Assembly: GCA_025062195.1 (NCBI GenBank)
Contig: JANXAS010000012.1
Coordinates: 3,237 to 67,236, forward strand
Direction: 5' to 3'
Source: Armatimonadota bacterium
Lineage (GTDB): Bacteria; Armatimonadota; Fervidibacteria; Fervidibacterales; Thermosaccharophagaceae
DNA length: 64,000 bases
Both the position numbers and the translations under genes were made by a program. Every line of letters begins with the position of its first letter. Positions within the stretch are counted from its first letter, which is position 1. Of this stretch, positions 3,212 through 60,100 are shown piece after piece. The notes below the pieces were generated by a model. It was not told where the DNA came from, searched no databases, and saw only the letters and a program-made list of their open reading frames with translations.

Positions 3212-3991
3212 TCATTTGCCTTGCGCCGGCTTAAGCGGCTTTGTGCTAACAAGCATTCTGTCACCCTCAATCACGACGCTCCTGATGATGGGATCAAATA
3301 TCATGTCATCTGGTTTGAGGAGCGGATTGAGTCTTCCCTCAAGCCGCCTTTGAAGCCACTCTGGCACCGGCACAGCATTGAAGTAAAGCTCGCTGAAGCG
3401 CACATGCACCGAACCATCTTGAGCCGGTAAAAATTTCCCGACAGCTCTAAACGGATTGTTGATGCCGAAGAGTGTCCAACGCCCAGTCAACTCAACTTGA
3501 TTGTCATCACGAAACTTCACCTTGATGTTCATGTTCTTCGTGTATTTGCCCTCGGCAAAGATTTGCTCAAAGCTTTGCGGCGTAAAAATAGCATCGCAAT
3601 GCGACTCTTTAACTGAGAGCACAACTAACTTGTCATCCTCAACGAGCATCTTCGCATCCACTACTGGTTCAATCACGAGCGCCTCAAACTTGAGCAAATT
3701 CACGGTCTTGATTCTGACTGGGCTACTACGAATCTCAACGAGTTGAAACTTACCCTTCGCAGTTTCCTCTTGGCTTGGTGATTGAACAATCTTTATATGC
3801 AGCGCTTTAGGATCAACCGGGTTTGAAATGCGCTTGCGAAGGTGCTGTTCAAGAGCAGCTACAACCTTAGCAGCTGTGAATTTATCATCCTGTTCATATG
3901 CGAATCCGATGAACAAGACAGGAGTGAACATACACCATGTGAGGATGATCGCCACGCATATAGCTTCACTGGAATAGGCGTTTAACTTCAT
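3212..3991 (-). CDS. Hypothetical membrane-anchored or secreted protein, possibly DUF2993/LmeA-like
   Basis: I moved the start to the internal ATG (MKLNAYS...) because a GGAGGTG site lies inside the longer ORF, just upstream of that ATG. There is an N-terminal hydrophobic anchor. The C-terminal part loosely resembles LmeA/DUF2993 proteins; that resemblance is from recollection only. Confidence 0.5.
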   Translation of the reverse strand: MKLNAYSSEAICVAIILTWCMFTPVLFIGFAYEQDDKFTAAKVVAALEQHLRKRISNPVDPKALHIKIVQSPSQEETAKGKFQLVEIRSSPVRIKTVNLLKFEALVIEPVVDAKMLVEDDKLVVLSVKESHCDAIFTPQSFEQIFAEGKYTKNMNIKVKFRDDNQVELTGRWTLFGINNPFRAVGKFLPAQDGSVHVRFSELYFNAVPVPEWLQRRLEGRLNPLLKPDDMIFDPIIRSVVIEGDRMLVSTKPLKPAQGK

Positions 3992-4678
3992 TTCATCACA
4001 CCTCCGCACATGCCATTATGTCAGAGTTGAGATGTCATATCAAGCAACACATCTCACTTCAGCATGTTCGCCAATTATAGACAACACATCCTTGATTCGG
4101 TTACTGTTAGCGAAGCCTTATTCACCGAATTAACTTGAATGGGGCGCCAAGGCTGAATCAGTAAAAGCTGTCGCTATTTTGCTCAGGAGTTTGCTTGTGC
4201 TCAGTATACCACTTTCAAAAATTAAGGTGATATCTAACCCATGCAGCGTTGTGGCTTGCTCAAAGGCGGTCGTTTAAATTTCGCCGGCAACTATGACTTG
4301 AAGTCCATAGCATGGTTGCGAAATGTGTTTGCCAGCAACATTTGCAGCGAAGAGCGCAAGCCATTTCCCGCAAAAGCCATTGAGTTAAGCCATTGGTGGG
4401 GTTGAAGTTGGAGCACCTTGCATACTTTGGGGCGATAACTTAACTATGAGGGCACTTTGGAGTTTGTTTTGGGAGATGTAATTCTCCAAATGGCTCTTTA
4501 ATAGTGTGTCTTTTGGTGCACCATCAACCTTCTTCTCATTGGCTTGCAAGAATTGCCCTTCGCATGCGCTACCAATCTCACTTTAGGTGGCTTAAAAGAG
4601 CCACCATACAAAGCGCTGACAACCTTACCTTGGCAAACCAATTTTGACCAATGAGGTTTGCGCCTGACTGCACTCCGC

Positions 4679-5953
4679 TCATACAGCCTTTTTAGCCAGT
4701 TCAGCCTGACACGCAACAGCCATGCCCGGATAGCTCACTCCCCAAAGCCCTTCAACAAACCCATCTTGTATTTCACGCCATTGAGATAACACTTGTTCAA
4801 CAACGCTACTTGCAAGTTGTCTCATCTCAGTTTCTGACACATCGCCGTAGTATTCAATGTTGACTGCTTGCGGGTCGGTGATTGGGTGCCCAATTTGACT
4901 GACCATGTAGCAATAGACCTGCCTGAGTTGCGGCTGTGCTTCAACAAGCCTGTTTGCGATCAGCTGAGCCATCACTTGATAAATCTTGCCGACATGTGAC
5001 ACCGGATTTTTGCCAGCTGCAGCTTCAAGGCTCATCGGGCGATACGGTGTTATCAAGCCGTTGATCCTGTTACCTCTGCCAACTTGCCCATCGTCGCCGC
5101 ATTCAGCACTTGTTCCAGTGACGGTGATATAAATGGTGTCACCTTCGTCGGCTGTATTCAGTTCAATCTCAACCTCATACTCCACTGGGAATTTGATCAA
5201 GCAATTCTCGCACAGGTGTTGTTTAAGCTTTTCCTTCACCACCTCTTTTAACTCGTAGTATTCTCTCACCGACCTCACATACCGGTCGATGAATGCAGCA
5301 GCTATTGTCAGCCTGATACGCCTGCCTGTTCTCACACCCATAACTTTTATGTCCTCGCCGATAGCTGGCAACTCAACTCTCAATGCCGGTGAGTTGAGAA
5401 ACATCTCCGCTTCCTTAACGAGTTGCTCAGTTACAGAGAGAGGCGCAAATGCAACTGCAAGTGATGTGTCATTTGCTCTCGGGACATCACAGCCCATGTC
5501 ATAGTTGGCAATCAAATCCTCGCTGCCTCGCTTTATCCTGTAATCAACCATTAGGGCGCCTGGTATAGGCAGATTTGGAAGTTGCCTTTGGAACCAATTC
5601 TGGATTCCTTGAAGCACCATCTTTCCAATTGGCACGCGCCAAATTTCGTTCTGAGAGCCACGCCACTCAAGCGTTGCTCTGCCGACAAGCAGCACATAAA
5701 TTGGCTCTTCAATTGCTCCGCCACCAAGCTGTGGTGATGAGCGTCCCCCGGCGAGAACACACTTGTCCACATTGTGATGAAGTATACGCCCCGTGTGCTC
5801 GCGATAGAACAAACATAACATCCTGCTGAGCTCCTCTGCCGCACCATCGCACAGAGTATCAGGATGACCTTTTCCCTTGCGCTCAACTATCTCCATCGGC
5901 ATGTCATCAACGACCACATTTCTTCCAAGGTTCACCCTCAGGTGCATCTGCAT
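4679..5953 (-). CDS. metK: S-adenosylmethionine synthetase, archaeal type (methionine adenosyltransferase)
   Basis: The N-terminal motif [17 protein letters not shown] and the overall ~400-aa layout match the archaeal MAT family rather than bacterial MetK. A SAM-I riboswitch lies upstream. The start could be the second ATG at 5947. Confidence 0.88.
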
Positions 5954-6269
5954 TACCCCCCGCTAATGGCTTTTAAGAATAAATCGGATTTGTATCCATA
6001 GCTGCTGGGGCATATCCGTGAGTCGCCGGGGCATATCTGCACAATGCACAGCTTCAATACAGTAGGGAGGCGGTTTGACGATTGAGAAATGTGAACGCCT
6101 TCATGTGGCTAACTCACTTTCCCACAAACTGCTATGCCCATGTCCCGCCTCCCCATCTTCAGTCCCGTTACAATGATTGCAAACGCCCCCATTACGACTC
6201 GGAAGCGCCCCTTATGGAGAGGAGCGGGACCTGGGCATTGGCATAACATTTGCCACCTGCGGTATCCCA

Positions 6270-6422
6270 CTCCTCTCATCTCTTGCCCTTGGAAGTTTCA
6301 CATCCACTCCAAGGACTCAACGCATTTGGCACCTTGCCGATGACATGCAGCTACCTATGCCATCGGTAGGTTGCCGGGCTTCATCGGGCGCGTGACCCTC
6401 CACCGCTCGTGATGAGAGGAGG
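6270..6422 (-). promoter_or_regulatory. SAM-I (S-box) riboswitch aptamer
   Basis: The minus strand reads CTCCTCTCATCACGAGCGGTGGAGGGTCACGCGCCCGATGAAGCCCGGCAACC...GGCAAGGTGCCAAATGCG...CAAGAGATGAGAGGAG. The hallmark blocks are present (UCAUCxxGAG, GGUGGAGGG, GCCCGAUGAAGCCCGGCAACC, GGUGCCAA), and a closing P1 helix forms between CTCCTCTCATC and GATGAGAGGAG. It lies on the same strand as the SAM synthetase gene and upstream of it. Confidence 0.8.
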
Positions 6423-6730
6423 GGCGCCTCAACAACATCTTGACCTTACTTCAAAACTCAAAACTACATTCCCAACTTACCGTCATTCATTCAAGCATAG
6501 ATTATGCCGCGCATCATCAAATCGTCAACCACGAACGATGTTCATGCTGCAGGTGTAATCAATGAGAGAGCATCTTTAAAAACACGCTGCTATTTACCGC
6601 GTGGTAGTTGCGCAGTTAGCGTTGTTTTCGTAGTGGCGAACTACAGCTCAACAAAAACAGCGACAAAAACAAATGATGTGGGTGGCTCACTAACTGCCCA
6701 TATCCAACTGCGTAACTTCCAACTGCAAAT

Positions 6731-6759
6731 GTTGTTGGGAAAACATATTTCCCAACAAC
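6731..6759. other. Perfect 12-bp inverted repeat (hairpin) GTTGTTGGGAAA-acata-TTTCCCAACAAC
   Basis: Read directly from the sequence. It sits inside the 2.6-kb non-coding region, and no flanking T-run is obvious. Confidence 0.9.
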
Positions 6760-7199
6760 GCTACAGGCTAATACCGAATCAGGTTTTCAACCACCTTCGT
6801 TTTCTATCTCATCCAATGCACCGCGAACCAGTTGCTGATCCGATAACCAACGCACACATTCTGTATTTGATGCTCACCTTCCCAACATGGTATCTGAAGC
6901 AACGATTTTTATAACCTGTAGTCACTGACGAAATTTCTGAGCGCTGTTTTTAGACATCAGAAAAGTTACTCACCACTGGCTTCCACCGCTCCAATGATTG
7001 AGCACTAACCTTGTAAGAGCTTTCAATAATGAGTTTGGCTCTCATTTATTTCGTTAGAGACCACTGTCTGAAAAGCCAGTGGCATGGACAGCTAACGCCA
7101 TTTTCAAAAACCAAGGTAAAACACAACCTATATAGTGTTGGTGCTCATCTGCCATGGTCGTTTAAACCCCGTCTTGGAAGCCAACGGCATGTATGGCTA

Positions 7200-8470
7200 A
7201 GCACCAAAAAACTCCTGAGCAAAGAGCTGAAGCGCTGACAGATAATCAGTTTCACTTTCTGCACTACCAAGTCAAGTTCAATGTTGAGTGCAAGGCTCTG
7301 AATTCAAAGTTCGCTTTTGAAGGTAAGGCTACCGCCAAGCTGAAAAATGAGTGCGGGGTGCAAAGCACAAAGCTCGTTTTCTTGGGGCGAGGCTACTGCT
7401 GAGCCGAAAATGGTCACAAGACGCAAAGTTAAAAGCTCTACCATTTCAAGAAATCAAAGTAACGCGACCGCCTTTTGAATCACAAAACAAAAACTCTCAT
7501 TATGTAGCATCGTCCCTTGTGGGCAACGAAATTTAAATGACCGTCTCGGACAACCCTTGATGCTACATAGGTTGGATGTCACCTTGACTTTTGATGGTAT
7601 TCATTTCCGCAGGGTAAGGCTGCTGCCGAGCCGAAAATTTGCATGCCATATAGTGGCAGGAAAAGCCTGTCCGAAAATTCGGCAAGCCAGTTGGCTTGCC
7701 CTAAGAAATGGGAAAAATCACGACGGGAAATTCTTAGGGTGAGGCTGCTGCCGAGCCAAAAATTGAGAAGGTCAGAAAATGGGCAAGTTGGCGGATCGGA
7801 AGATAGGCAATGAATGATTCACAGCGCCTTTTGCTACAAACTTTTTTAGTGCTTGATTATCCATGCCACTGGCTTTAGCCATTGGTTGATGACGGGAATT
7901 CATTATTCATTCGGCGAGAATTTTCCTCGCCGTTTAAAGACGACGCTCAGAGAATTCGTCAGCTACTATGGGCTAAAGCCCATAGCATAGTTTGAAGAAG
8001 CGTTCACCAAAAACATTTGAGGCAAAGGGCAAACGAAAAAATTCAGACGCTCTTTACCACGAGCTTTGTTGCTTAGGTTTGTAGTTAGCCACGAAGCGAT
8101 AGCAAAGTGGCGTCAAAAATCCGTTTAAGTTCTTGGTCAGCCACCAAGCAAAGCGCGTCATAAGTTGTTCCTTGTTCCTTGTTCCGTTTTTTGACGGCAC
8201 TCCGCTTTGCTCCGTGCCTTATACAGCCTAATGGGAGGGCGAGGTTCCCGCCGAGCTAAAATTTTTCAGCAAAGAAAAAATTCGTAAGGGAAGGCTACTG
8301 CCCTGCCGAAAAATCAAAACGAAAAATTGGCAAGCCAATAGGCTTGCCCTACGAGGACAAAACGAAAATTCTCGGCATGCCAATGATGTGCCATCCAAGA
8401 GGACGGAAAATCGGAGGGCGATGTTGCCGCCGAGATCAAAATCAGGAAGGTCAACTGGCACATAGTTTTG
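7200..8470. repeat. Cluster of dispersed short intergenic repeat modules (mosaic of GC-rich hairpin motifs)
   Basis: There are multiple imperfect copies of motifs such as GGGCGAGGCTACTGCTGAGCCGAAAA, AGGGTAAGGCTGCTGCCGAGCCGAAAA, GGGAGGGCGAGGTTCCCGCCGAGCTAAAA, GGCAAGCCA(nn)TGGCTTGCC, CCATGCCACTGGCTTTAGCCATTGG and TATGGGCTAAAGCCCATAGC. Spacing and orientation are irregular. Confidence 0.85.
7825..8228 (+). repeat. Composite ~400-nt repeat element, copy 1
   Basis: It aligns by eye along its whole length with 20225-20625. The shared order is CCATGCCACTGGCTTTAGCCATTGGTTGATGACG, GAATTCATTCGGCGA, GAGAATTCGTCA, GGCTAAAGCCCATAGCA, GCGTTCACCAAAAACATTTGAGGCAAAGGGCAAACGAAAAAA, CTCTTTACCACGAGCTTTGTTGCTTAGGTT, GTAGTTAGCCACGAAGCGATAGC, TTGACGGCAC, GTGCCTTA. 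Confidence 0.85.
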
Positions 8471-8570
8471 TCTTTACATCTACAAGCTGGTGCACTAAAC
8501 TTGCTTAAGTTAGGCACTGCCTTAGCCAAGAGCATAAACAAGAGACAAGATTTGAAAGGATGAACAAGCT

Positions 8571-10376
8571 ATGGCACTAAAAGTTGAGATTGGTAAACCT
8601 GCAGAGTTTAGCAGTTGGGATGAACGATCCCTCTCGGATGAGGAAGTGGAGCAGTTTTTGACTTCACAGCGAATTTTTGAATGGCATATACCTAACCCTA
8701 TTGCTGCGGAATGCCGTATCCCATCAAACGAGGCACACCTGTTGTTACTTATGGCTGAACAACTTCGCTGCATGCAATCCTTTGAAGAATTACAGTGCTG
8801 GAACCAAGTGCGCATTTCCCGCTTCCCACACCAGATTGAAACAGCTTTGAAAGTGTTGAACGAGATGAATGGGTGTGCCTTACTCGCTGATGATGTTGGA
8901 TTGGGCAAAACAATTGAAGCAGGCTTGGTGATGAAAGAACTCATTGTTAGAGGGCTTGTTAAAAGCGTGCTCATATTGGTGCCAGCATCGCTAACTCATC
9001 AGTGGTGTCACGAGATGTTTGAGAAGTTTGGGGAGAGGTTCTTTATAGCCAGCCGGGAAAACGACTGGCTATCTTATGAGCGCATAATAGGTTCAATTGA
9101 CTTGGCAAAGCGTGAACCACACAGAAGCGCCATACTTAGACGCCAGTTTGACCTGCTCATTGTTGATGAAGCCCACAAATTAAGGAACAGGCTGACCCTT
9201 GCTCATCGCTTTTGCCAAAAGATACAAAAGCGCTATGTCCTGCTCCTAACTGCTACTCCGATCCAAAACAATTTATTTGAACTTTACAACCTTGTGACCC
9301 TGATAAAGCCTGGGCAACTTGGAACATTGCGAAATTTCAAAAGGAGATATGTCCTATCCGATGACCCGAAAAAGCCAAAGAATGTCGGGGAGTTGCGTCG
9401 GTTGCTCTCATCGGTAATGATAAGACATCACAGAGATGAAGTTGGAATAACCCTCCCACCAAGATATGTGACGACGCATTACATCTTGCTTACACCTCCA
9501 GAGTTTCGCCTTTATGAGGAGATGACGATGTTCTTAAGACAGAGCTACAAGCGATTTTGCGGGGCATCCGGTAAGGAAAGACACATGCGATTGACGCTAA
9601 TATTGCTCCAAAAAGAGCTCTGTAGCACGCCTCAAGCAGTAGCAGGAACATTGCTTAAGATGGCGGGAGACGATTACCCTGGCGAATTAAGGGAAAAGAT
9701 AGCCGAATTTTTCGAGCTCGCAAGGACAATACCATTGTGCGCAAAAATTGAGCACATTAAACAACTTTTGAGCGCACTCGGTGAGAAGGTGCTCATATTT
9801 ACAGATTACATTGCCAGCATGAAAGCGATAAAAAGAGCGCTTGAAGAGCATGGACATGAAGTCGTCCTATATCACGGTGGCATGAGCGAAAAGGCTAAAG
9901 ATAGGGCTATTGAAAGGTTTAAGGAGAGTGCTGGGGTGATGATAAGCACAGAGTCGGGTGCTGAGGGACGAAATCTGCAGTTCTGTAGGGTGGTGATTAA
10001 CTTTGATCTGCCTTGGAATCCCATGCGTCTTGAGCAGCGCATTGGGCGTGTCCATAGGTTAGGACAAGATAAACCTGTGTTTGTTATAAATTTGGCGACA
10101 GAGCAAACTGTTGAGGAACACATAATTGAGGTTTTGATAACAAAGATAGGGTTGTTTGAGTTAACCGTTGGCGAACTTGAGTTAATGCTCGGTATATCAC
10201 ACCTTGAAGAGGGCATTGAACGGCTCGTTGCAGAGGCAATTATGCAAAGCGAAACACCTGAAGAGGAAAAGGAACGCCTAAGACAAGTTGGAAAACTGCT
10301 GCAACGAGCTGTGGAACGCTACGAGCGAGTGAGACAGGCAAACCAAATGTTCTGGGAACTCATAAAACAGCACTGA
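8571..10376 (+). CDS. SNF2-family (Swi2/Snf2, RapA/Rad54-like) DEAD/H-box ATPase
   Basis: Motif I is LLADDVGLGKTIEAG, motif II is LLIVDEAHKLRN and motif III is LLLTATPIQNNLFELYNL. The C-terminal helicase lobe has STESGAEGRNLQ, NFDLPWNPMRLEQRIGRVHRLGQ. The protein is compact (601 aa) and has no obvious accessory domain. Confidence 0.9.
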   Translation: MALKVEIGKPAEFSSWDERSLSDEEVEQFLTSQRIFEWHIPNPIAAECRIPSNEAHLLLLMAEQLRCMQSFEELQCWNQVRISRFPHQIETALKVLNEMNGCALLADDVGLGKTIEAGLVMKELIVRGLVKSVLILVPASLTHQWCHEMFEKFGERFFIASRENDWLSYERIIGSIDLAKREPHRSAILRRQFDLLIVDEAHKLRNRLTLAHRFCQKIQKRYVLLLTATPIQNNLFELYNLVTLIKPGQLGTLRNFKRRYVLSDDPKKPKNVGELRRLLSSVMIRHHRDEVGITLPPRYVTTHYILLTPPEFRLYEEMTMFLRQSYKRFCGASGKERHMRLTLILLQKELCSTPQAVAGTLLKMAGDDYPGELREKIAEFFELARTIPLCAKIEHIKQLLSALGEKVLIFTDYIASMKAIKRALEEHGHEVVLYHGGMSEKAKDRAIERFKESAGVMISTESGAEGRNLQFCRVVINFDLPWNPMRLEQRIGRVHRLGQDKPVFVINLATEQTVEEHIIEVLITKIGLFELTVGELELMLGISHLEEGIERLVAEAIMQSETPEEEKERLRQVGKLLQRAVERYERVRQANQMFWELIKQH

Positions 10377-10489
10377 GTAACAGTTTGTGTATTTGCAGTC
10401 AGTCTGTAAGTGGCGCTAAACTTCGGTGGTTTAGGAGAGCCACGCTTCAGTTTAAAGTCACCTACTTTTAAGAGCGCAAAACCATTACG

Positions 10490-10637
10490 CTCTTTACTAC
10501 AAACTTGTTGGTCAGGCTCGCAGTTAGCCAAGAAGTGAAGTGTCGTTAAGTTGGTGCAAAGTGCGATGTTATCATTTTACTTGCACTTCACATTCACTTT
10601 GACGGCACCACATTTTGCTTGGTGCCTTACTGCGAAC
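10490..10637 (+). repeat. Intergenic repeat element (module A, subfamily 2) between the SNF2 gene and the Cys-rich gene
   Basis: The run CTCTTTACTACAAACTTGTTGG, GCAGTTAGCCAAGAAG, GGTGCAAAGTGCGATGTTATCATTTTACTTGCACTT, TTGACGGCACC, GGTGCCTTACTGCGAACC is collinear with 12953-13107 and 16174-16285. Confidence 0.85.
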
Positions 10638-10689
10638 CAACAAACTTTTGAGTAAAGAACGAACCATTGTATGGTGGGGAGTTAACGCG

Positions 10690-12597
10690 ATGCAATGGCA
10701 GCAAAGCTTTAGCATGTCATTTGGGAGTATAAAATCTGATGCCGTTGAAACATGGCTTCGCTCACTATGTTGTAGGTTCTTTGAATCCATTGGTGCCAAG
10801 GTGGACAAAAAAGGTAAATTGCTGCACATCAAATTACCTGAGGATTCACCGTTTGAATGGGATGGTAGCGAACTTATTGTTGGATTTGAAAAAGATGCCT
10901 GTGAAGCTGTTCAAGGCGCTTTGCTATTCACCCCCGGCAGCTTGCTGTTTCATCGCGTTCATGAATGGTTAAGAGAGCATGCATTGCACATTGCTGTTAA
11001 CTTGCCCGAGATTAAAAAGCCATCGGAACCTAAACTGCGTTTTGGAAATTGTGATTTGGTTTCAGTCAGAAGAAGGAAGGTCTGTCTGCGCGGTTTGCTT
11101 GTAAGCGTCGCGCTATCATGCATGCCGGCGTTTGAAAAGGCGATACTTAAGAAGTTCATGGTGCTTGAGAACGGCTTTGTTGCAGAAGTTACCGAGAAAG
11201 TGGACAGCATTCTCTCCGATGCTGAGCCCACTAAACCTTTATTCAGCCGCTCACTTTTCAGCAAACTTTTTGGATTGCTCACCGAGAAGTGTGAGAGCTT
11301 GCTTTCGGATTGGCTTTCGGAGCTGACTCAGATTGCAAAAGAGCGCTCAAAAGCTGAGCTTAAAAGAATAATCAACTACTACTCCAGCCTGCTCGGGGAA
11401 TTAGCCATCAAAGCAAGCAACAACAGCCAATTTCGGCATGAGATGGAGAAGTTAATTGCTGAGCGAGATGAGAGGCTAAGAGAGGAGTTACAAAGATATC
11501 AGCCCTTTGTCTCGGCTCAAGTTGTTGGCATCGCTGAGGTGAACATACCAGCAATTGAATTTAGGTTTACAGTCTCAAATGACTCGCTTCAACTATCGTT
11601 TCCCACTTATTGCAACCTTTATGATGGCACTTTCATGTTCGTAGCGTGTGCCAATTGTGGCTCTCAAACAAGTTATGTAAATCTTTGCACAAGTGGACAC
11701 ATAGCATGTAACGATTGCATTTTGAGTTGTTCAACCTGCGGCACGGAATACTGTAAAAGTTGCATCCGTAATTTTTGCGAACTTTGTAATTTACCTGTCT
11801 GTGACGAGTGCCTTTTAAATTGCGGGCTTTGCCACAGGAATGTTTGTAAGATACACAACATTGAATGTGAATTCTGTCGGAAAAAAGTTTGCAAAATATG
11901 CTCAATTGAATGCCACATATGTGGAAAGGGAGCCTGTTTTGATCACTCCATAAGTTGTGCTATCTGCAGCAGAGGAATCTGTAACGATTGCTTGCAACGG
12001 GGCATTAAAGAGATGCAAAAGTGCTTTGATTGCGGAGGGGTCATCTGCAATGACCATGCAATTTTGTGTTCAACTTGTGGGCGGGTAACTTGCACAAAAT
12101 GCAGAGCTGTTTGTTCAACTTGTGGTGGGATTATTTGCACAATGCACGCTTTTAAAGCCAATTGTTGTTCAATTATTCTGTGTAATAATCACTCCGTCAA
12201 TTGTCAATCATGCGGGAAAATAGCTTGTTTAGAACACATCGCGCAATGTGGTATTTGTGGCTCAATTGTCTGCCGCCTATGCAGCAACAGATGCATAATT
12301 TGTGAACAATACTACTGCGTTTCATGTTTGGGTAGAAAAACTGTGTGCAATTTGTGTATAAGGTTGCTTAATTCACCGGAGCGAAAATTGCCATCTTCTC
12401 TACTACCGCATCCGATGCCAAAACAGATTTTAAAGACAAGAAGTTGCCGATTTGTAGCCACAAAGTGTAGGTCGGTTTACCTATGGCGTGATGGATTGGA
12501 TGGATTACTTGTTGTTGCTGATGCTTCTGGAAAAATAATCTTCGCAAAACATCTTAACGCATTATGGCTTCTTCGCCATCTGAAGAAGTGGGGCTAA
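10690..12597 (+). CDS. Hypothetical protein: ~320-aa N-terminal domain with a coiled-coil segment, a ~237-aa tandem zinc-ribbon-like Cys array, and a ~75-aa C-terminal domain
   Basis: I moved the start to the ATG at 10690 (MQWQQSF...). A GGGGAG site precedes it, and the first 25 codons of the tracked ORF lie inside the repeat element. The Cys array is described under 11647-12357. I recognise no family. Confidence 0.75.
   Translation: MQWQQSFSMSFGSIKSDAVETWLRSLCCRFFESIGAKVDKKGKLLHIKLPEDSPFEWDGSELIVGFEKDACEAVQGALLFTPGSLLFHRVHEWLREHALHIAVNLPEIKKPSEPKLRFGNCDLVSVRRRKVCLRGLLVSVALSCMPAFEKAILKKFMVLENGFVAEVTEKVDSILSDAEPTKPLFSRSLFSKLFGLLTEKCESLLSDWLSELTQIAKERSKAELKRIINYYSSLLGELAIKASNNSQFRHEMEKLIAERDERLREELQRYQPFVSAQVVGIAEVNIPAIEFRFTVSNDSLQLSFPTYCNLYDGTFMFVACANCGSQTSYVNLCTSGHIACNDCILSCSTCGTEYCKSCIRNFCELCNLPVCDECLLNCGLCHRNVCKIHNIECEFCRKKVCKICSIECHICGKGACFDHSISCAICSRGICNDCLQRGIKEMQKCFDCGGVICNDHAILCSTCGRVTCTKCRAVCSTCGGIICTMHAFKANCCSIILCNNHSVNCQSCGKIACLEHIAQCGICGSIVCRLCSNRCIICEQYYCVSCLGRKTVCNLCIRLLNSPERKLPSSLLPHPMPKQILKTRSCRFVATKCRSVYLWRDGLDGLLVVADASGKIIFAKHLNALWLLRHLKKWG
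11647..12357 (+). repeat. In-frame tandem coding repeat: about 16 modules of ~14 aa (~42 nt) with the pattern C-x2-C-x4-C-x2-[C/H]-x3
   Basis: The translation reads CSTCGTEYCKSC IRNF CELCNLPVCDEC LLN CGLCHRNVCKIH NIE CEFCRKKVCKIC SIE CHICGKGACFDH SIS CAICSRGICNDC ... CGICGSIVCRLC SNR CIICEQYYCVSC. I counted 53 Cys in 237 residues, with His replacing the fourth ligand in six modules. Confidence 0.9.
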
Positions 12598-12599
12598 CA

Positions 12600-13260
12600 C
12601 CATCTAATTTCACTAAAAATCACCCAAACATGGTGGGAATTACGCAGTTAGCGTTGTTTTGTCCGGACAGACGATAGTCTGCCAAAGAAATGAATGCTGC
12701 AAACAGTGTAGATGATGACAAAAGGGGGGCTTTAGCCCCGAACGAAACTTTATTTGAATTTTCGTGCCTGATTTGTGGATGGAAATCGCAAAAAGCAATT
12801 GCGCCATAAAATCTTGTTCAACTTTATTGGGCTTAACTTGAACACAAGGGGAACGCTTTGTAAAACTTTGAGGCACAAAACTTGTTCAAACATGCAATGG
12901 CTGAGTTAGCACGCAATGTTGTGTAACTCCTATAAATAAATATGTGGCTTTACTCTTTACTACAAGCTTTGCTGGTTAGGTTTGTAGTTAGCCACGAAGC
13001 GAATGCGAAGTGGCGTTAAATTAGTGCAAAGTGCGATGTTATCGTTTTACTTGCACTTTGCACCCACTTTGACGGCACTGTGCTTTGCTCCGCGCCTTGC
13101 TACGAAATTTTACCAACTATGAGGGCTTTAGGGTCGCTAACGAAATTCACGGCACTATGGAAAGCATATTTCCGGAAGCTTCCACGGGCTCCCTATGCTA
13201 CTACAATTTCTTGAAATGGTATAAGCCGTCCGCATCTTTACTTTTGTAGATGTTTTTTCT
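12600..13260. repeat. Intergenic repeat cluster, including a module A subfamily-2 copy at 12953-13107
   Basis: GCAGTTAGCGTTGTTTT also occurs at about 6611. GGGGGGCTTTAGCCCC is a hairpin. The run CTCTTTACTACAAGCTTTGCTGGTTAGGTTTGTAGTTAGCCACGAAGCGAATGCGAAGTGGCGTTAAA, GTGCAAAGTGC-17 nt-GCACTTTGCAC, TTGACGGCACTG, GCCTTGCTACGAAA makes up the module A copy. Confidence 0.85.
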
Positions 13261-13400: not shown

Positions 13401-13703
13401 TTACAATGGCACAACGCTGGCTATAGAATCGCCCTCCTCAAGCACTAATAAGCGAGAACCCTTTGCGGTGCGCGATGCCGTTTTAATTTCCTCTAATTGC
13501 AGCCTAACTATGCGCCCTTGCGTTGTTGCAACAACAATCTCACCGCTCTCACCGACTGGCAATGCTGCAAGAAGTGCATCGCCCTCGGCGAGATTAACAC
13601 CAGAGACACCTTTTGCAGGGCGCTTTCGCACCCGCACCTCATCAATAGGCACTCGCTTTGCATACCCATTCTTTGTGACGACGAGCACATATTTCGCCTC
13701 CAT
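13401..13703 (-). CDS. Stand-alone DNA gyrase subunit A C-terminal repeat (beta-pinwheel blade) protein, two blades, 100 aa
   Basis: VVTKNGYAKRVPIDEVRVRKRPAKGVSGVNL and VATTQGRIVRLQLEEIKTASRTAKGSRLL match the GyrA/ParC C-terminal blade consensus (tkxGyiKRxxxxefrxqxRggkGv). A strong GGGGAGGTG Shine-Dalgarno site lies 6 nt upstream of the ATG, and a terminator lies downstream. Confidence 0.75.
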   Translation of the reverse strand: MEAKYVLVVTKNGYAKRVPIDEVRVRKRPAKGVSGVNLAEGDALLAALPVGESGEIVVATTQGRIVRLQLEEIKTASRTAKGSRLLVLEEGDSIASVVPL

Positions 13704-23108: not shown

Positions 23109-23209
23109 CACCCCCCAAATGATGCATTCAGTCCGGCAACTCACACCGAAAGCGATGATACCACATGTGTTCGTCCCGTGATAGCATTCGGAACAGAGGT
23201 GAGCATAGC

Positions 23210-26200
23210 ATGCGCATAGGTGATTTGATAGAGCTAAAGAGTGTGCCAACGGTAATTCAACTTGAGGGTGTCTCACATGCTGTGGGCGCCGAATTTGAGG
23301 GGACAAGCCAAAGAGCATTAAGGGAGCTTGTCTCAACATACCTTATCATTCGTGGTGCAAATGAGGCTGCGCTTGAAAGCATACTCACGACCATGACCAA
23401 AGAGACGGGTTGCGCACACATGCTCAGCGGGGCATATGGCACTGGGAAAAGCCATATGCTTGCTCTTATCGGTTTGCTCTGCCAATTTCAGTGGGCGAGA
23501 GAGCTGTTTGCAAGCTCGCACGAGCGCTACAGCAAATTGATGGATGAGCTTGCAAAGCGCAAGTGGTTAGTCACATTCACCAGCTTAGATGCGTATTCGC
23601 CAACGGCGCCACTTGAACAAATCATTTGGGATGAAACTGTGGCTTCGCTTAAGCGAACCCATCCACATGCGGTGGGACAGAAGCTACCAAGTGAGATGCC
23701 GTCGTCTCGCGCAGAGGCACTTACAATGCTGCAAAGCGCCGCGAATGCTCTCGGCTATGATTGCACCCTGTGGGTCATTGACGAACTATCAATGTTCCTT
23801 GGAGCGAAGGGGCACAGGGAATTGCAAGCTGATGCATCATTTCTGCAGTTCATCGCACAGCACTGCCAACGCTCCAGAGCTTGGCTCATTGTAGCCATAC
23901 AGAAGACGATTGAAGAGCTTGGCGAACTTGAACCATACTCACTGACACAAATCAAGGACAGATATGTGCGCCATACACTCTCATTCGCTCACGCTCGCCA
24001 GCTCATACGAAAGAATCTGCTACCGCCAAAGGATGGGCGACAGTTTGCGCAGGTCATGCTCCAATGGCATCGCAAGCTACTTGAGTCCTTCCCAATGATT
24101 GACTTCAGCGCCGAGGAGTTGATAGCTTGCTACCCGCTGCACCCGTTCACGCTCGCTTGCCTTGAGAGGGCTACCGGGCGTTTCTTTTCAAGGACTCGCT
24201 CCATCGTTGACTTTGTCCAAAAACAGGCACAGGAGTTGGTTGACTGTGATGCCTTTCAACTCATCACGCCAGACGCAATCTACGAGCACTTTTACGCCGA
24301 CATTATCTCGCACCCAGAGCTGCATCCATATGCCGACGAAGTCATCCCATATCTTGATGAAAGGGTGAGCGAACTCTTTCCGGAGCGCCAAAAGGCTATG
24401 AGAAAACTTGCAAGGGCGCTTGTGGTATTCAAGATGGCCGGCATAGATGCATCTGTAAGGAAGCTTGCTCACACATTCCTTTGGGACTTGGGTTTGGGTG
24501 CGGAGATGAATTACAGCTATATGCTGTCGTTGCTGGAGACGCTCCGCACAAACGCGAACTACATTGACTGTGTTAGGCGTGAGGAGGATTACGGCGATAC
24601 ATACTCCATTGATTTAGGCGCAACCGTCACTGAGATGTTGCAACGGCGCTTGCAGGCTTTGATTGAGACCTTTTCCGATGAGGACATCAGAGTGGTTGAG
24701 TATGCACTGAGAACAATGTCCACATCTCACCTACCCGTCCCGCAAATTGGCACCGGGCACACATTCACCACTCAGTGGCAAAACGCTTCGTTCAGTCTTA
24801 TGCTGCAATGTGTTGACCTGAGAGAACTCACCAAAGACTGGATGCTTAACTTGCAGAACTACATTGCCTCACCATCGTGCGCCTACGATGTCCATGCGCT
24901 TATAGCGCCGCCAATCGCAGCTGATGAGCAAATGAAGAGCGCAATTGAGCTGCTGTATTCGCTTGAGGAGAATAGGTTCAGATATGCCATACCTATCCTC
25001 ATACCGAGGGCTGTTGGTAGGGGTGAAATGATGCGCCTCATGGAGAATGCAGCAGCATCAATCCTTGCAAGCGACCCATCCCTCAAGGACAGCGACATCG
25101 GCGTTGCTATTTACAAGCGCCTGCGCGAGGAAGAAAACGCAAGGGCGAGCGAGACACAGCGCATACTGAGAAATGCATATTTGAATGGCACATTGCTCAT
25201 AGGCGGAAAGAAGCTGCCCATCTCGGCGCTTATACCAACTGAGGCATCAATTAGCGATGTGTTCACAGCAATCGCTGGCGCATCTATTCCCAAGGTCTTC
25301 CCGCAATTTTCATCCGTAGCGCCGCGCTCGCCAGTTCGTCCATCGGATGAGCACAGAAAACTTGTCAACGCGATTTTGGCTGGCGAGGGAATTCAAAAGT
25401 TAAGCGCTGACCTAAGAGAGCTATGGCGATGCATTGCTATTCCGCTTGGAATAACGGCACAACTGCTTGATGGCACTGCACCATGCGATGGTGCTGCGAG
25501 GCTTATAAGCGAGCTGATAGCCGGAGCAGATGTCCCAATCGCGTATGAGCAAATTATCTCAATGGCTCGCAAGAGCGAATATGGATTGCGTGAGGAGCAA
25601 TGCGAGTTGCTCATTGCAGCATTGTTAAAGCGCGGCGAAGCCTTGGCACACGACCGATATGGCGCAACGCTATCATTACAGCGGCTCAGCTCACCGCTGC
25701 GAAGGTGCGTTGCGACATTGAGCACAGCACCGCTCATTGAGAGAGAAACCTGGGAAGAAGCGATTTTGTATGCGGATGGACTTTCCATACTGCCATCCGA
25801 GCTTGAGATGAAATTTCATCCAGCAGTGCAACAGATGCTCTGGCAGAGCATCGTCTCGTGGAAGGAACACGCATCCGGAATTTGCGAACAAGCCCACAGG
25901 GAACTGCTCTCGCTTATGACACAGCTGCAGCACAGCAATGCACTGTGGTCTCACTCGCTCAACGCCATCGGCACTGTCGGAGTTGCCATCAGCGCTGTAG
26001 CTGCCGAGGCAATAGCTCATGAAGGTCTTAAGGGATGGGTTGCAACGCTGGAAGTTAATGGCATAAGTTGGGAGGAACTCAAATCGGCATGGAGCAGATG
26101 CACTCAACTTCATGATGCGTTAGTGGCACACGGAGAGAAGCTGCGAAAGATACACGCTTGGCTGACCGATGTGAGCCTGAGGCTCAGCGGCGATGCGAAG

Positions 26201-26989
26201 GCGTTGGCACAACAACTCCTTGAGGCACTTGACGGTGGCGAGTCCATCCTTGGTGAGCTTGATTGGTTCGTCTCATCTTGGGAAAGACTGCTAAGCAGCT
26301 ACATAAGCGATTACTTGAGGCATCATGAGAACGAACATAGCGTCTCACGCTTTGAGCCATACATCAAAATTAGACGCCACAGCGCATTCAGGCTGCTTAA
26401 CCGAATGGCACAATTGCGCTTGCCGATGAGGGAAGCAATTGAAGCGATGAGAACAGTTAGCGCCGAGCTGTCAAAGCAATGTGCCATAACAAAGGAACAA
26501 CTCGCACGCCAGCTTTACAGCTCGCCAATATGCCAGAGTTGTAAATTGATGCTCGGAGAACACATTCCGCTTGTTCCCCCGGAGGAGATAACAAGCACCC
26601 TTGAAGAGATGGCTAAGGAATGCAAGGGGCGTTTTCTCTCACACGATGTCAGGGGCAAGATTAGTTCATTCATGGAACGCCTCCCAGCATCCACCACTAA
26701 GCAGCGTTTGGAACGCCTGCTTAACTTGAGCATAAGTGATAGCCACGATGTCTGGCTTGAAGCGCTCAGCGACGATGTGATCGAATGCATTAACACGGCA
26801 TTGTCACCGACACCGACCGCTATAAGGAGTTTGCAATCGCTGTGTGAAAGGCTTGTTGGAAGCGAGGTGACTAAGGCACAAGCTGTAAGGGTGTTTTTAA
26901 ATTGGCTTGACGAGCCAACGCAACTGAAGCCGTTTGATGTTGTCCGCTTCATAAGAGGCGAAGATGCGAGTCAACAAAACAACCGGTGA
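23210..26989 (+). CDS. Large (~1260 aa) P-loop NTPase, BrxC/PglY/DUF6079-like
   Basis: Walker A is LSGAYGTGKSHMLA and Walker B-like is CTLWVIDELSMFL. The N-terminus is MRIGDLIELKSVPTVIQLE. The remainder is long and mostly helical. An AGAGGTGAG Shine-Dalgarno site precedes the ATG at 23210. The family assignment is from recollection of the GxxGxGKSH signature. Confidence 0.7.
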   Translation: MRIGDLIELKSVPTVIQLEGVSHAVGAEFEGTSQRALRELVSTYLIIRGANEAALESILTTMTKETGCAHMLSGAYGTGKSHMLALIGLLCQFQWARELFASSHERYSKLMDELAKRKWLVTFTSLDAYSPTAPLEQIIWDETVASLKRTHPHAVGQKLPSEMPSSRAEALTMLQSAANALGYDCTLWVIDELSMFLGAKGHRELQADASFLQFIAQHCQRSRAWLIVAIQKTIEELGELEPYSLTQIKDRYVRHTLSFAHARQLIRKNLLPPKDGRQFAQVMLQWHRKLLESFPMIDFSAEELIACYPLHPFTLACLERATGRFFSRTRSIVDFVQKQAQELVDCDAFQLITPDAIYEHFYADIISHPELHPYADEVIPYLDERVSELFPERQKAMRKLARALVVFKMAGIDASVRKLAHTFLWDLGLGAEMNYSYMLSLLETLRTNANYIDCVRREEDYGDTYSIDLGATVTEMLQRRLQALIETFSDEDIRVVEYALRTMSTSHLPVPQIGTGHTFTTQWQNASFSLMLQCVDLRELTKDWMLNLQNYIASPSCAYDVHALIAPPIAADEQMKSAIELLYSLEENRFRYAIPILIPRAVGRGEMMRLMENAAASILASDPSLKDSDIGVAIYKRLREEENARASETQRILRNAYLNGTLLIGGKKLPISALIPTEASISDVFTAIAGASIPKVFPQFSSVAPRSPVRPSDEHRKLVNAILAGEGIQKLSADLRELWRCIAIPLGITAQLLDGTAPCDGAARLISELIAGADVPIAYEQIISMARKSEYGLREEQCELLIAALLKRGEALAHDRYGATLSLQRLSSPLRRCVATLSTAPLIERETWEEAILYADGLSILPSELEMKFHPAVQQMLWQSIVSWKEHASGICEQAHRELLSLMTQLQHSNALWSHSLNAIGTVGVAISAVAAEAIAHEGLKGWVATLEVNGISWEELKSAWSRCTQLHDALVAHGEKLRKIHAWLTDVSLRLSGDAKALAQQLLEALDGGESILGELDWFVSSWERLLSSYISDYLRHHENEHSVSRFEPYIKIRRHSAFRLLNRMAQLRLPMREAIEAMRTVSAELSKQCAITKEQLARQLYSSPICQSCKLMLGEHIPLVPPEEITSTLEEMAKECKGRFLSHDVRGKISSFMERLPASTTKQRLERLLNLSISDSHDVWLEALSDDVIECINTALSPTPTAIRSLQSLCERLVGSEVTKAQAVRVFLNWLDEPTQLKPFDVVRFIRGEDASQQNNR

Positions 26990-57172: not shown

Positions 57173-60100
57173 TCATTCAAGGAATTCACACCAACCCCAA
57201 AGCTGCGGCTTGATTTCAACTTCGCTTGGCAAATCCGAAACAATGCCCGAAAGTTTGTTTGCCCAATAGAGTCGTTCCGCAACACTGTCGCCTGCTTGTG
57301 TTGAGAAGATGACGCCAAAATCAATGGGCATCTTAGTGCCTGCAATTGGTGGTTTTATGTTAGACCAGATTTCGTCCCACAAAATTTCAGCCTCAACATT
57401 GTATCCGATAGCCGTTGGCTTTACTGCGACCTTTGAGCGCGTGAGTGTTTCCACTTGGTCAACGGTTACACTTCGCACAGGCGATGCAAACTTTTCTGGC
57501 GTCTTTGTGCCAGCCGATCTGTAACGATATATGACTGCTATCGGTTTGCCGCCAAAAATTGATAAGAGAATACGCACATCACCGGCAACAATTTCCTGAG
57601 GGTGGCTCTCCGGTGTCCGCATTAACCCGAGTTGCAAATCAACACAATCTCCAAACTTAAATAGCAACCGCAAATCCTTAGCGCTGTTGAGCGCCGGGGT
57701 TTTATCGTTCACCATCGCTGCCAAATACAGCGAATGCTCATTCCACATCAGGGCAAACTTCGCCCTCACCTCACCATCACTTGTCACATTCTCAAATTGC
57801 TTCTCTTCCCACTCGTTAAGCTCAGCGTCAACCTTTAGCTGCTTGAGCGCTTTGCGAACCGAGAGCAACTTCAATGTGCCCTCTTTGGCACGCTCCATTG
57901 CTGCGCGCCTAAGGATGAATTGCTCACAAGCCAAAACATCCTTTGGCGTCAACCTCAAGCGCACGCTGAACTTATGCGAGCTTTTTAACCCCTCAAGTTC
58001 AACTATGCTTGCGTGGTGGTGCCCACAGACGAAATAAAATCGCCCATCAGCTGTTGCATTGAATGTCGGACCAAAGCATTCTTCTTGAAGCGTGATATCA
58101 TTTACGGGCATTCCACGCCTCGGCTCAGCGAATATGTTCCACCAAGGTGCAATGCGGTGATCTTTGAAGAGCGTCGCTATTAGCAACCCGTCGCACGTGA
58201 AAAGGTAAACTTCACCTTTATTTCCGATGATGGCAAAAACCTCGCCCAGCGTTGGAACATTAGCAGTGCCGATGATTCGCAGTGTCCCAATAACTCTGCC
58301 CGGCGCTGGGGATGGTGCACCGTGAGAGGCGTGGACACCACCCCAAGGATTTGGATATGACCAAATAACTGTTCCATCACCACTTATGCCGAGGATTGGC
58401 TCACCCGTGTAAATGACTGTGCCATCCTGCAGCACGGCTGTGCTCGGTCCGCAGCCAATACCTTTTATCGGTGCTGGACCAATCTGGCTGGCATTGTTCA
58501 GGTCGTAAACTGGAGCACCCGCTTTCGTCCAACCCGAAACTTTGATAAGCCAAAGCCTACCAGCACCCTCCATAGCAACGCTGAAGTCCCTTGAACTCAT
58601 AAGGCTGCCCCAGTAAACGAACAACCTCGCAACTTCTCCATCAGCTCTCGGTGCGTCTTGGAAAGCAACTTCGTTTGCTTGCAGCCTGCCATCACCATTT
58701 TCGTCAGCCCAAACGAAGTTGAACTTAAACGGGTCTCTATCTCCGAGTGCATTGAAGAAATCGTTTCCCAGCAACTTTGAGCCTGCTGCATAAGGATTTC
58801 TGCCAGCGCCACCGGTTGCCCATTCGCATGACCCGAAAGCAGAAAGCGGCTTCGCATAAACTCCGGTGTCTTCAGTTATCAGCACATAACCGGTGTGCAC
58901 TCCAAAGTCGTAGACTAAAAATTTTCTCCCCTTGAACTCAATTGGTCTGTCGGGAGTTACTGGGAAGATGTGACCATGTGCTTCGTCACCGACTCGGTAG
59001 TAAATTCGTTTTAGCTTCCAAGCGCCGTTATCAAAGTCAAGTTCAAATTCCATGCCTTTGTAGTAAGCGCTGCGCTTATCCCTGCTAAGCCAAACCGGAC
59101 CTCCGCCATACTCTGGTCCGCCAATGAATTCGCGCAGCAGTTTGCCTTCGCGTGCATCCCAGACAGAGATTCGTTTTGGTTGATAGTCCTCTTCGGCAAC
59201 CCAAAGTCTTCCCGCATTATCAACAGCGATGCCATAGGGATTGGACATGCGTCTTGGGTTATAGGGACCGACATTGCGGCCACCGGCATCACCAATGACC
59301 CTGAGCAATTTTCCGTTTGGCGAGAAGACTTTGACTTGATGGCTGTGACCTCTATCGGATATGAAAATTTCTCCGCCCTCGGACACAAATATTGACTGGG
59401 GTTCATCAAGGTCATCAGTGATAAGCGGTTTAATCTCACCCGAGTTTAAATCAACCCTGACGACACGACCTGAACTGATTGCGAGCAACACATTCACTCG
59501 CTTATCAAACCAAATTGCACTTGGGCTGTGGACGTTGTAAGTCCTCAAGATTGCTTTTTCGGGTTCATTTGCAGGCTGAGAAAGCTTGGCGATGTCATAA
59601 GCGACGATTTCATCACGGTTGCGATAGGATACAAAGAGCACTTCTCTGTGTGCTGCAATGCCTTCAATGCCGTGATCCTCTTTCAGTTGCATTAACCTTC
59701 GGAAACGATAAGTCTGCGGATCAAGCTCAGAAATGACTGCCTGCAAACCTTGAAAGCCAAGCCACGCACCTTTGCTTGCAACATAAAGTTTCTCGCCATT
59801 AGAGCAAAGCAATGCTGCTCCGCCAAGGTCGAGCCATTTTGTTCCCCAAAGTTTGTTGCCATTGACATCAAGCGCCATAAGTGTATCGCCAGACTCGGCG
59901 GTGAATGCGCCTATGAAGACTTTATCGCCGACGATTGCGACGCTTCTTGGTGGGCAATGGTCTGAAAGCCACCCGCCAGTTCCATCTTGAAGAAGCCAGG
60001 GTGTTTTGCCAGACCAGTAAACAGTAAAATGATAGCGCAGATTGAGCTCACCGCGCCGGACAAAAACCGCATTATATTCTCCGGGGGCAACTAACCTACC

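Follow-up and report, generated by a model that had tools for sequence, protein, structure and literature searches.

A 64,000-nucleotide (nt) stretch of DNA from an Armatimonadota bacterium (NCBI GenBank assembly GCA_025062195.1, contig JANXAS010000012.1, positions 3,237 to 67,236 of the forward strand), referred to here as the window, encodes a protein of 635 amino acids (aa) that carries a dense array of cysteines. The array is real and most likely forms a chain of about 15 interlocked zinc sites, and the array gene is paired with a gene for an SNF2-family ATPase in an arrangement that is conserved across bacteria and archaea. On balance, we favour a reading in which the array protein serves a split SNF2 motor as its accessory subunit, with the array as a stiff, zinc-stapled spacer or scaffold whose length is specific to the lineage. 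The features that define the array are as follows (window coordinates):

10690..12597, forward strand: gene of the Cys-array protein, 635 aa (P0001), with an ATG start at 10690; the longest open reading frame (ORF) runs from a TTG at 10615
11647..12357, forward strand: cysteine array, aa 320-556, frame 1; 30 ligand pairs, 15 predicted interleaved tetrahedral sites
11647..11763, forward strand: array head with RING-type C3HC4 spacing, aa 320-358, C-x2-C-x9-C-x3-H-x2-C-x2-C-x11-C-x2-C

The array contains 53 Cys and 9 His in 237 residues (translation, frame 1), all within one ORF; an earlier, sequence-only reading of this DNA had reported the 53 cysteines at 11647-12357, and both the number and the coordinates are correct. 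That reading had also described about 16 modules with a period of 14 residues (42 nt), and here our results differ. Cys autocorrelation of the array is 32 at lag 15 and 28 at lag 30, but 4 at lag 14; because it tops at lags 15 and 30, the repeat unit is 15 residues or 45 nt. There are 13 modules, 12 of them strict (CxxC-x4-Cxx[C/H]) and one degenerate (aa 490-501, ANCCSIILCNNH), plus two caps: an atypical N-terminal head (aa 320-346, C-x2-C-x9-C-x3-H-x2-C-x2-C) and a C-terminal CNLC (aa 553-556). The fourth ligand of successive modules runs CCHCHC and then HCHHHCC. The alternation of Cys and His previously noted at this position is therefore partially present in this array; it is not kept in the wider family, where the fourth ligand is restricted to C, H, D and E.

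The repeats are old and diverged, as judged from three measures: Tandem Repeats Finder (TRF) detects no DNA tandem repeat within the array region, the 45-nt units share a mean DNA identity of 43% (maximum 62%), and only 12% of non-ligand residues are identical between units. The sequence-only reading had likewise described the nucleotide units as not near-identical. Read directly, the protein sequence has no signal peptide or hydrophobic segment, and the 635-aa product is identical to an entry already in a public collection.

To assign ligands to metal sites, we used a co-loss test, which asks which ligand pairs degenerate together, on 154 homologs comprising 172 array segments and 1611 modules. 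A module i that has lost its CxxC tends to be followed by a module i+1 that has lost its second pair (76 joint losses, odds ratio 12.9, p=3e-37). When the same test of first against second pairs is made at offsets of -2, -1, 0, +2 and +3, the odds ratios are 0.6-1.6, and the values for co-loss of two first pairs (A-A) and of two second pairs (B-B) are 1.2 and 0.3, respectively. The comparison of offset +1 with offset -1 serves as an internal control, since each requires two neighbouring imperfect modules. Given that co-loss is specific to CxxC(i) with Cxx[C/H/D](i+1), an interleaved topology with predicted sites of the form C-x2-C-x19-C-x2-[C/H/D] is well supported. Within the head, homologs that lack C333/H337 tend to lack C355/C358 as well (odds ratio 42, p=1.8e-8); C320/C323 would then pair with C340/C343, the only partners left by elimination. 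The ligand tally agrees with this scheme: the 53 Cys together with H337, H389, H419, H456, H486, H501 and H516 give 60 ligands, which is exactly enough for 15 four-ligand sites. The predicted sites (residue numbers of the array protein) are:

Site 1: 320/323 + 340/343
Site 2: 333/337 + 355/358
Site 3: 347/350 + 371/374
Site 4: 363/366 + 386/389
Site 5: 378/381 + 401/404
Site 6: 393/396 + 416/419
Site 7: 408/411 + 431/434
Site 8: 423/426 + 453/456
Site 9: 445/448 + 468/471
Site 10: 460/463 + 483/486
Site 11: 475/478 + 498/501
Site 12: 492/493 + 513/516
Site 13: 505/508 + 528/531
Site 14: 520/523 + 543/546
Site 15: 535/538 + 553/556

Consecutive sites in this prediction overlap by 12 residues, such that the cross-brace never closes. 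Each site would be drawn from two successive modules, which replaces the earlier idea of a 14-residue module as the metal-binding unit; the earlier suggestion of interleaved or cross-braced sites, on the other hand, fits the co-loss statistics for both the body and the head. Several other arrangements were considered and rejected. One zinc per 15-residue module would leave C340/C343 and C553/C556 unpartnered, and same-module co-loss is weak (odds ratio 1.6). Sites built from an adjacent Cxx[C/H]-x3-CxxC correspond to offset i-1, for which the odds ratio is 1.0. Knuckle-knuckle and turn-turn pairing correspond to the A-A and B-B values given above, and a 30-residue C4/C3H super-repeat was discarded as the C/H alternation is not conserved in the family.

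The predicted metal is most likely zinc rather than iron, and the Cys residues are unlikely to form disulfides, because the fourth ligand is drawn from the set C/H/D/E, the residues that coordinate zinc, and His is exchanged for Asp between orthologs (H419, for example, is replaced by Asp). About half of the fourth ligands are His, Asp or Glu, and these are interchanged between orthologs. A structural-zinc role for the array is well supported. One family member from outside the window, P0047, has 23 consecutive CxxC-x4-CxxD modules in which Asp is always the fourth ligand.

Conservation follows the ligands. In three orthologs with 59-63% identity to the window protein, all Cys are invariant. 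One of these orthologs belongs to the Armatimonadota metagenome-assembled genome (MAG) Candidatus Thermosaccharophagus tengchongensis, the locus of which shows complete synteny with the window, at identities of 75-89% for neighbouring genes, 80% for the SNF2 gene and 63% for the array protein. Within the array protein, ortholog identity is 38-42% at non-ligand array positions and 60-72% in the flanking domains. As the ligands are invariant while non-ligand positions diverge, selection acts on the ligands and their spacing. Strict module number varies little among five orthologs with 51-63% identity (12 in four of them and 11 in the fifth). At greater distance, the ligand spacing is kept in 154 homologs with about 20-25% identity from two domains of life, and a logo of 1486 modules from these proteins reads C0, C3, G4 (51%), K/R5, hydrophobic 7, C8, D/E10 and H/C/D 11. 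The earlier proposals that ligand spacing is strongly conserved and that selection maintains a repeated metal-binding fold, as opposed to recent slippage, are both upheld by these comparisons.

The array protein has no annotated family. Scans of the whole protein and its parts against Pfam, NCBIfam and PADLOC return no family at threshold, and a word-indexed homolog search found 3 close relatives only (a repeat with a 29-sequence alignment added none). The family was revealed only by exhaustive profile search, in which 682 representatives of 50%-identity clusters were matched at E<=1e-3 and 320 at E<=1e-10. It thus comprises at least 682 clusters at 50% identity, in both bacteria and archaea. 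A pattern scan of genome contigs, which used clade-specific N-terminal motifs, returned one locus. By tblastn, the array protein matches three haloarchaeal plasmids among plasmid sequences and has no match in phage genomes. Every named family member that we found is labelled 'hypothetical protein', and a literature search found no published description of the family. The sequence-only reading had called so long an array unusual in bacteria; the number of clusters qualifies this statement, and none of them is annotated.

A common plan is shared by 100 of the 153 homologs that were parsed, in which the array is preceded by an N-terminal region of 250 aa or more and followed by a tail of 50 aa or more. 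In these 100 proteins the N-domain is about 330 aa, the array 109-590 aa (median 237) and the tail about 80 aa; across the family the array spans roughly 7-39 sites. P0050, also from outside the window, departs from this plan: its array is joined to a von Willebrand A (VWA) domain and not to the RapA-tail-like domain described below.

An AlphaFold2 model built with 107 homologs has a mean predicted local distance difference test (pLDDT) score of 93.4 and a predicted template modelling (pTM) score of 0.73 for the full protein; the array plus tail modelled alone gives values of 92.4 and 0.73, and pLDDT over array residues is 86-98. In the model, each module forms a beta-hairpin that carries CxxC at the tip and leads into a helical turn of three residues with the second pair (recurring DSSP pattern EEE------EEEHHHEEE). 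As modelled, the module is treble-clef-like and not zinc-ribbon-like. A zinc-ribbon fold is not sustained, as the second pair lies in the modelled helical turn rather than in a beta-hairpin knuckle, and the DZR and Zn_ribbon models of Pfam are unmatched. A rod shape for the array is plausible given the high pLDDT and pTM of the model.

No significant fold match for the array was found in the PDB by Foldseek. The best matches, none of them significant, are the LMO2 tandem LIM domains (2xjy_A, E=0.035), the JADE1 PZP domain and the RBR proteins HOIL-1 and HHARI. Sequence searches of the PDB gave weak matches only: a designed helical protein, the TRIP4 zinc finger (E=0.0056), PML RING (E=0.44) and RNF4 RING (E=1.1). 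In a separate Foldseek search of BFVD, uncharacterised proteins from giant viruses and phages matched the array+tail model (E=1e-8 to 1e-4; the root-mean-square deviation [RMSD] is poor), including those of Klosneuvirinae (Edafosvirus, Hyperionvirus, Harvfovirus), Bodo saltans virus and several phages; long zinc-knuckle arrays may therefore occur in viruses as well, as far as these model comparisons indicate.

Among known zinc fingers, the RING domain offers a parallel to the array head. The RING consensus spacing (C-x2-C-x(9-39)-C-x(1-3)-H-x(2-3)-C-x2-C-x(4-48)-C-x2-C) fits aa 320-358 exactly, the same head spacing is found in 118 of 154 homologs, and the pairing predicted for the head from co-loss (pairs 1+3 and 2+4) is that of RING. 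Against the array protein, every zinc-finger model of Pfam nevertheless stays below threshold: zf-C3HC4 has E=0.28 (11.5 bits vs a cut-off of 21), Sina_RING 1.4, IBR_1 E=0.05 and zf_RING-like E=0.0085. Other cross-braced two-zinc fingers are AN1, B-box, FYVE and PHD, and the central 'C-x2-C-x4-C-x2-H' of AN1/FYVE-type fingers resembles the body module. As in such fingers, the first pair of the body module would reach forward and the second pair back. The difference lies in extent: known cross-braced fingers stop at two zinc ions, whereas the brace predicted here runs through 15 sites (7-39 in the family). Nothing in the array protein points to E3 ligase activity.

LIM fingers have the spacing C-x2-C-x16-23-H-x2-C, which the predicted array site C-x2-C-x19-C-x2-[C/H/D] shares, and LIM tandems (LMO2/LMO4 with LDB1) are extended rods that act as protein-binding scaffolds. 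The LMO2 tandem is also the best, though non-significant, fold match noted above. However, the RMSD to LMO2 is 10-11 A, the Pfam LIM model has no match in the array protein, and the LIM zinc ions are sequential (two fingers in about 55 residues, about 27 residues per zinc), whereas the array sites would overlap by 12 residues with one zinc per 15 residues. The DnaJ cysteine-rich domain (CxxCxGxG x4) resembles the array in its repeated CxxCG knuckles and in the non-sequential pairing of its repeats; DnaJ binds two zinc ions in a hairpin, with repeats 1+4 and 2+3 paired. Unlike DnaJ, the array lacks GxG (G is found at +1 only, in 51%) and would form a forward-running chain, and the Pfam model for DnaJ CxxCxGxG is unmatched in the array protein. 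The array also differs from metallothionein (Metallothio, E=0.54), in which Cys-thiolate clusters form in a chain that lacks regular secondary structure: the array is modelled with regular beta-hairpins at pLDDT >90, and its His/Asp ligands and four-ligand bookkeeping fit isolated tetrahedral sites.

The regions on either side of the array, and the upstream gene, provide the context that gives the array meaning and that the sequence-only reading had missed. The following domains flank the array:

10735..11001, forward strand: RapA-Spacer-equivalent subdomain, aa 16-104, alpha-beta-beta-beta-alpha-beta (DSSP of the model)
11053..11616, forward strand: RapA/BrxHII-CTD-equivalent domain (CTD, C-terminal domain), aa 122-309, beta-sheet with three long coiled-coil-like helices
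12412..12594, forward strand: small basic C-terminal domain, aa 575-635, four beta-strands and a helix (DSSP), with a W...V-x-D...G signature

With the full model as a query, Foldseek returns RapA first (8so8, 8spg, 8t0l_F and 6bog_A; E=1.3-3.3e-7, probability 1.0, 277-292 columns). An hhalign comparison of the N-domain profile with RapA aligns aa 12-235 co-linearly with RapA 704-923 (E=1.2e-4, probability 55%); by subdomain, aa 16-104 correspond to RapA 704-791 and aa 122-309 to RapA 881-923, with P=0.006 and P=0.002 when the two are compared separately. For aa 1-317, Pfam gives no family at E<=10, and RapA_C is unmatched. The tail of RapA and BrxHII has been described as a degenerate restriction endonuclease (REase)-like alpha+beta domain followed by a beta-sheet with inserted long coiled-coil helices (PMC12839542, 2026). 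The modelled secondary structure of aa 16-104 and then 122-309 follows this layout, and in the latter domain DSSP assigns strands at 122-166, helices at 187-269 and strands at 273-309. No PD-(D/E)xK residues are conserved in the Spacer-like subdomain in the family alignment. In RapA, Spacer residue D744 touches the zinc-binding domain of the RNA polymerase beta-prime subunit (PMC8501970).

The C-terminal domain is alignable in 83 of 107 homologs and has no Pfam or PDB match; the 79-residue tail behind the array, in which it lies, has a net charge of +11. We considered that this domain might be a relocated RapA Tudor domain, but hhalign shows no similarity to the RapA N-terminal domain.

The upstream gene and the spacer that separates it from the array gene are:

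8571..10376, forward strand: SNF2-family ATPase gene, 601 aa, motor core only
10377..10689, no strand: spacer between the SNF2 and array genes, 313 nt, unusually long for this pair

Pfam recognizes the SNF2 protein by SNF2-rel_dom (6e-37) and Helicase_C (3e-26), and the SNF2 motifs GLGKT, DEAH and QRIGRVHRLGQ are intact in its translation. Its best sequence matches in the PDB are the Sulfolobus SSO1653 core and E. coli RapA from residues 151-339 onward. The protein stops where the RapA tail begins, and it lacks both the RapA-type N-terminal Tudor domains and the C-terminal Spacer/CTD. Its best PADLOC/NCBIfam models are BrxHI/BrxHII, DrmD, DpdE and RapA, all under curated cut-offs; against ZorD models it has E=1.9e-47.

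In 12 of 14 loci, the gene directly upstream of the array gene is an SNF2 ortholog, and the two often overlap. The upstream orthologs are 553-643 aa in length with 34-47% identity over their full length, and the linked loci include Armatimonadota, Ca. Amarolinea (Chloroflexota), a marine metagenome contig, Halorhabdus and Haloferax plasmids, a Hodarchaeota (Asgard) MAG and another archaeon. RapA (HepA) of E. coli is an RNA-polymerase-associated SNF2 ATPase, and BrxHII, from type 3 BREX, has the same order of domains. The pair resembles RapA/BrxHII in that the upstream gene matches the RapA ATPase core and the first 310 aa of the array protein correspond to the Spacer plus CTD in fold, order and secondary-structure layout. 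It differs in that motor and tail are in separate genes, with the same split in the 12 linked loci, in that the tail carries the 237-aa array and an extra C-terminal domain, both absent in RapA/BrxHII, and in the lack of Tudor-like N-terminal domains. No SNF2 fusion was found among the long homologs of the array protein, and no BREX genes are present in any neighbourhood examined. The 313-nt spacer contains no convincing promoter or terminator; elsewhere the two genes are about 30 nt apart (locus L001) or, in most other pairs, abut or overlap. The spacer also contains GCACTTTGCAC, which recurs twice near 13024-13063.

In the favoured reading, in which the SNF2 motor is split and the array protein is its accessory subunit, the N-terminal 310 aa of the array protein would supply the Spacer plus CTD that are missing from the 601-aa SNF2 protein, and the two proteins would dock and rebuild a RapA-like machine; we expect such a complex by the logic of gene fission. 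The array would bind about 15 structural metal ions, most likely Zn(II), in interleaved sites, with the CxxC knuckle at the hairpin tip of module i paired with the Cxx[C/H/D] turn of module i+1, and the chain would open with a RING-type cross-braced pair. Because the predicted stapling is continuous, with each site overlapping the next, a stiff and elongated element is expected. This rod would keep the small basic C-terminal domain and the motor a fixed distance apart and may, like tandem LIM domains, present a long and variable surface for protein binding. We infer a ruler or scaffold role because an array of varied length (109-590 aa) is flanked by two regions in most homologs, and because the array is near neutral in charge and followed by a basic tail. 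A RapA-like role, on RNA polymerase or DNA, would be in keeping with the housekeeping genes that surround the pair in this genome and in several archaea; in other lineages the pair lies next to Mrr-type nucleases within defence islands. Since accessory genes and contexts differ between lineages, the role of the pair could be housekeeping and RapA-like, could be defence, or could differ from lineage to lineage.

Several points weigh against this reading. No result requires a ruler function, and array length is constant among close orthologs. The rod shape, its rigidity and the Cys-Cys geometry are predictions, and the site topology is taken from evolutionary co-loss. The likeness to the RapA tail consists of structural similarity plus a weak profile match (the hhalign probability of 55%, with no RapA_C). 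An adjacent SNF2 gene is absent at loci L002 and L013 (2 of 14) and, as one member carries a VWA domain, the array is not exclusively tied to SNF2. A broader proposal goes further, and we put it forward tentatively as a possibility with rather less than even chances: the continuous cross-braced zinc chain (one site per 15 residues, 7-39 sites, RING-like head) may be a previously undescribed zinc-stapled rod and serve as the arm that sets length in an ancient SNF2 machine. This machine, made of two subunits and shared by Bacteria and Archaea including Asgard, would be a split relative of RapA/BrxHII and would act on RNA polymerase or foreign DNA.

Of the competing explanations, one concerns the biological role of the pair and is compatible with the structural reading of the array: the pair may be the core of an anti-phage or anti-plasmid defence system that tracks foreign DNA for a nuclease, with the window copy being a nuclease-less or degenerate remnant. 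A branch of the family (L008 10655-16561, L012 9979-10731 and L011 10114-11067), which includes the Halorhabdus/Haloferax plasmids, does have an Mrr-type endonuclease behind the pair. For the L008 enzyme, the match to the nuclease end of ZorD reaches E=9.5e-21 (that of the Halorhabdus nuclease is weak, E=1.3e-4), and Mokosh MkoA-like and phospholipase D (PLD; DrmC-like) genes come after it; the L006 pair adjoins type I restriction-modification genes, and the SNF2 protein resembles BrxHII, DrmD, DpdE and ZorD. ZorD of the Zorya system (SNF2 plus an Mrr-like nuclease) is thus approached from two sides, as the SNF2 protein matches ZorD and the Mrr gene of some relatives matches its C-terminus; however, the window has neither the nuclease nor ZorA/B/C, and the array protein has no Zorya counterpart. 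Furthermore, the window and L001 share a syntenic setting of housekeeping genes around the pair, with neither a nuclease nor a methylase as partner, and tblastn searches of the window with nuclease, AAA and other accessory proteins found nothing, including any decayed AAA or nuclease partner gene in its gene-poor flanks. At the archaeal loci L014 and L015 the pair is likewise surrounded by housekeeping genes, no PADLOC 2.0 model matches the array protein (several helicase models match the SNF2 protein in part), and phage genomes are without a match. We therefore regard a defence role as rather unlikely for this pair, while giving it serious weight. Somewhat less probable still is that the array reads nucleic acid, with zinc modules lying along DNA or RNA and the variable surface positions serving as reading heads, so that the array would decide which substrate or sequence the SNF2 motor acts on. 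The partner belongs to a family of DNA-translocating ATPases, module position 5 is K or R in 35% of modules, the window array has a net charge of +7 ahead of its +11 tail, and non-ligand positions diverge fast. Homolog arrays, in contrast, are neutral to acidic (net -1 to -14 in P0006, P0007, P0008, P0018 and P0047), D/E at position 10 is about as frequent as the basic position 5, which is more suggestive of inter-module salt bridges, and no known nucleic-acid-binding zinc-finger family is matched.

The remaining explanations concern the chemistry or the reality of the array. Zinc-thiolate switches such as Hsp33 and the ZAS anti-sigma factors invite the comparison with a thiol sensor, in which oxidant or metal stress would free zinc, unfold the rod and switch the SNF2 motor. 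A cytoplasmic protein with 60 potential thiolate/imidazole ligands and no signal peptide, from an organism whose likely source is a hot spring, could serve in this way, but one or two sites suffice for a switch, and 7-39 sites in a strict 15-residue geometry would be left unexplained; frequent replacement of the fourth Cys by His or Asp (23 Asp in P0047) also lowers redox sensitivity, and we consider a sensor improbable. We think it very improbable that the sites are rubredoxin-like Fe(Cys)4 centres forming an electron-transfer wire. In favour of such centres are the rubredoxin-like CxxCG knuckles and the short distances expected between sites. Against them, His, Asp or Glu makes up about half of the fourth ligands, with exchanges between orthologs, the second pair is modelled in a helical turn of treble-clef type and not as a second CxxCG knuckle, and the neighbourhoods contain no redox partners. 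Finally, a lineage-specific low-complexity expansion without conserved ligand spacing or structure, which the sequence-only reading had named as the case that would overturn it, found no support and is refuted by the homolog comparison to the point of having almost no probability left: spacing is kept in at least 154 homologs at about 20-25% identity in two domains of life, module number is near constant in orthologs, the DNA units have diverged, and pLDDT is >90.

An anatomy, a ligand map and a likely binding partner are now proposed for a family of at least 682 clusters of 'hypothetical protein'. What is new is the concatenated arrangement of a treble-clef/cross-brace zinc module together with a split SNF2 remodeler; the kinds of components were already known. 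Prokaryotic SNF2 ATPases are poorly understood beyond RapA and a few defence systems, and a conserved split SNF2 with a long zinc arm offers a new handle on motor targeting. An endless cross-brace, if true, would be a new route to a stiff protein rod of tunable length, which is of relevance to structural biology and protein design. The ligand co-loss statistic infers the topology of metal sites from sequence alone and can be reused on other repeat arrays.

Gene content around the pair varies among loci. In L003, L005, L006 and L007 (~3800-6100 and 10100-12600 in locus coordinates) the pair, a distant relative of that in the window, is part of a larger conserved cluster consisting of a ~260-aa protein of unknown function, a PF00004 AAA+ ATPase (weakly IetA-like), the SNF2 protein and the array protein, often with DUF1257, DUF2997 and a small radical-SAM protein downstream. 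The window and L001 contain neither these accessory genes nor the Mrr-type endonuclease. The SNF2 proteins of the four loci L003, L005, L006 and L007 have an N-terminal CPxCGW...CFRCG zinc ribbon that is absent from the SNF2 protein of the window. Around the pair of the window and L001, the setting is different. There, the neighbours of the pair are an archaeal-type S-adenosylmethionine (SAM) synthetase gene with a SAM riboswitch, and genes for a nucleotidyl transferase, a DUF4838 protein and a transporter.

The synthetase gene (window 4679-5953, reverse strand; PF01941, E=7e-139) is of archaeal type in an apparent Armatimonadota genome, and a SAM-I riboswitch (RF00162, 53 bits) lies upstream of it at 6273-6418 on the reverse strand. 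Between this riboswitch and the SNF2 gene, window positions 6500-8570 form a gene-poor region of ~2.1 kb with six dispersed copies of a ~38-nt repeat (core GAGGCTRCTGCCGAGCC) and GGCAAGCC-N4-GGCTTGCC palindromes at 7681-7700 and 8329-8348. These repeats and palindromes may be repetitive extragenic palindromic (REP)- or miniature inverted-repeat transposable element (MITE)-like elements; the orthologous gap in L001 is ~660 nt only. Downstream of the array gene, a stand-alone 100-aa ORF at 13401-13703 (reverse strand) encodes two DNA gyrase A C-terminal beta-propeller blades (PF03989, E=2e-28), and L001 keeps this ORF at 89% identity. The window also contains two very long ORFs, one of 1274 aa at 23165-26989 (forward strand) and one of 1408 aa at 57173-61399 (reverse strand).

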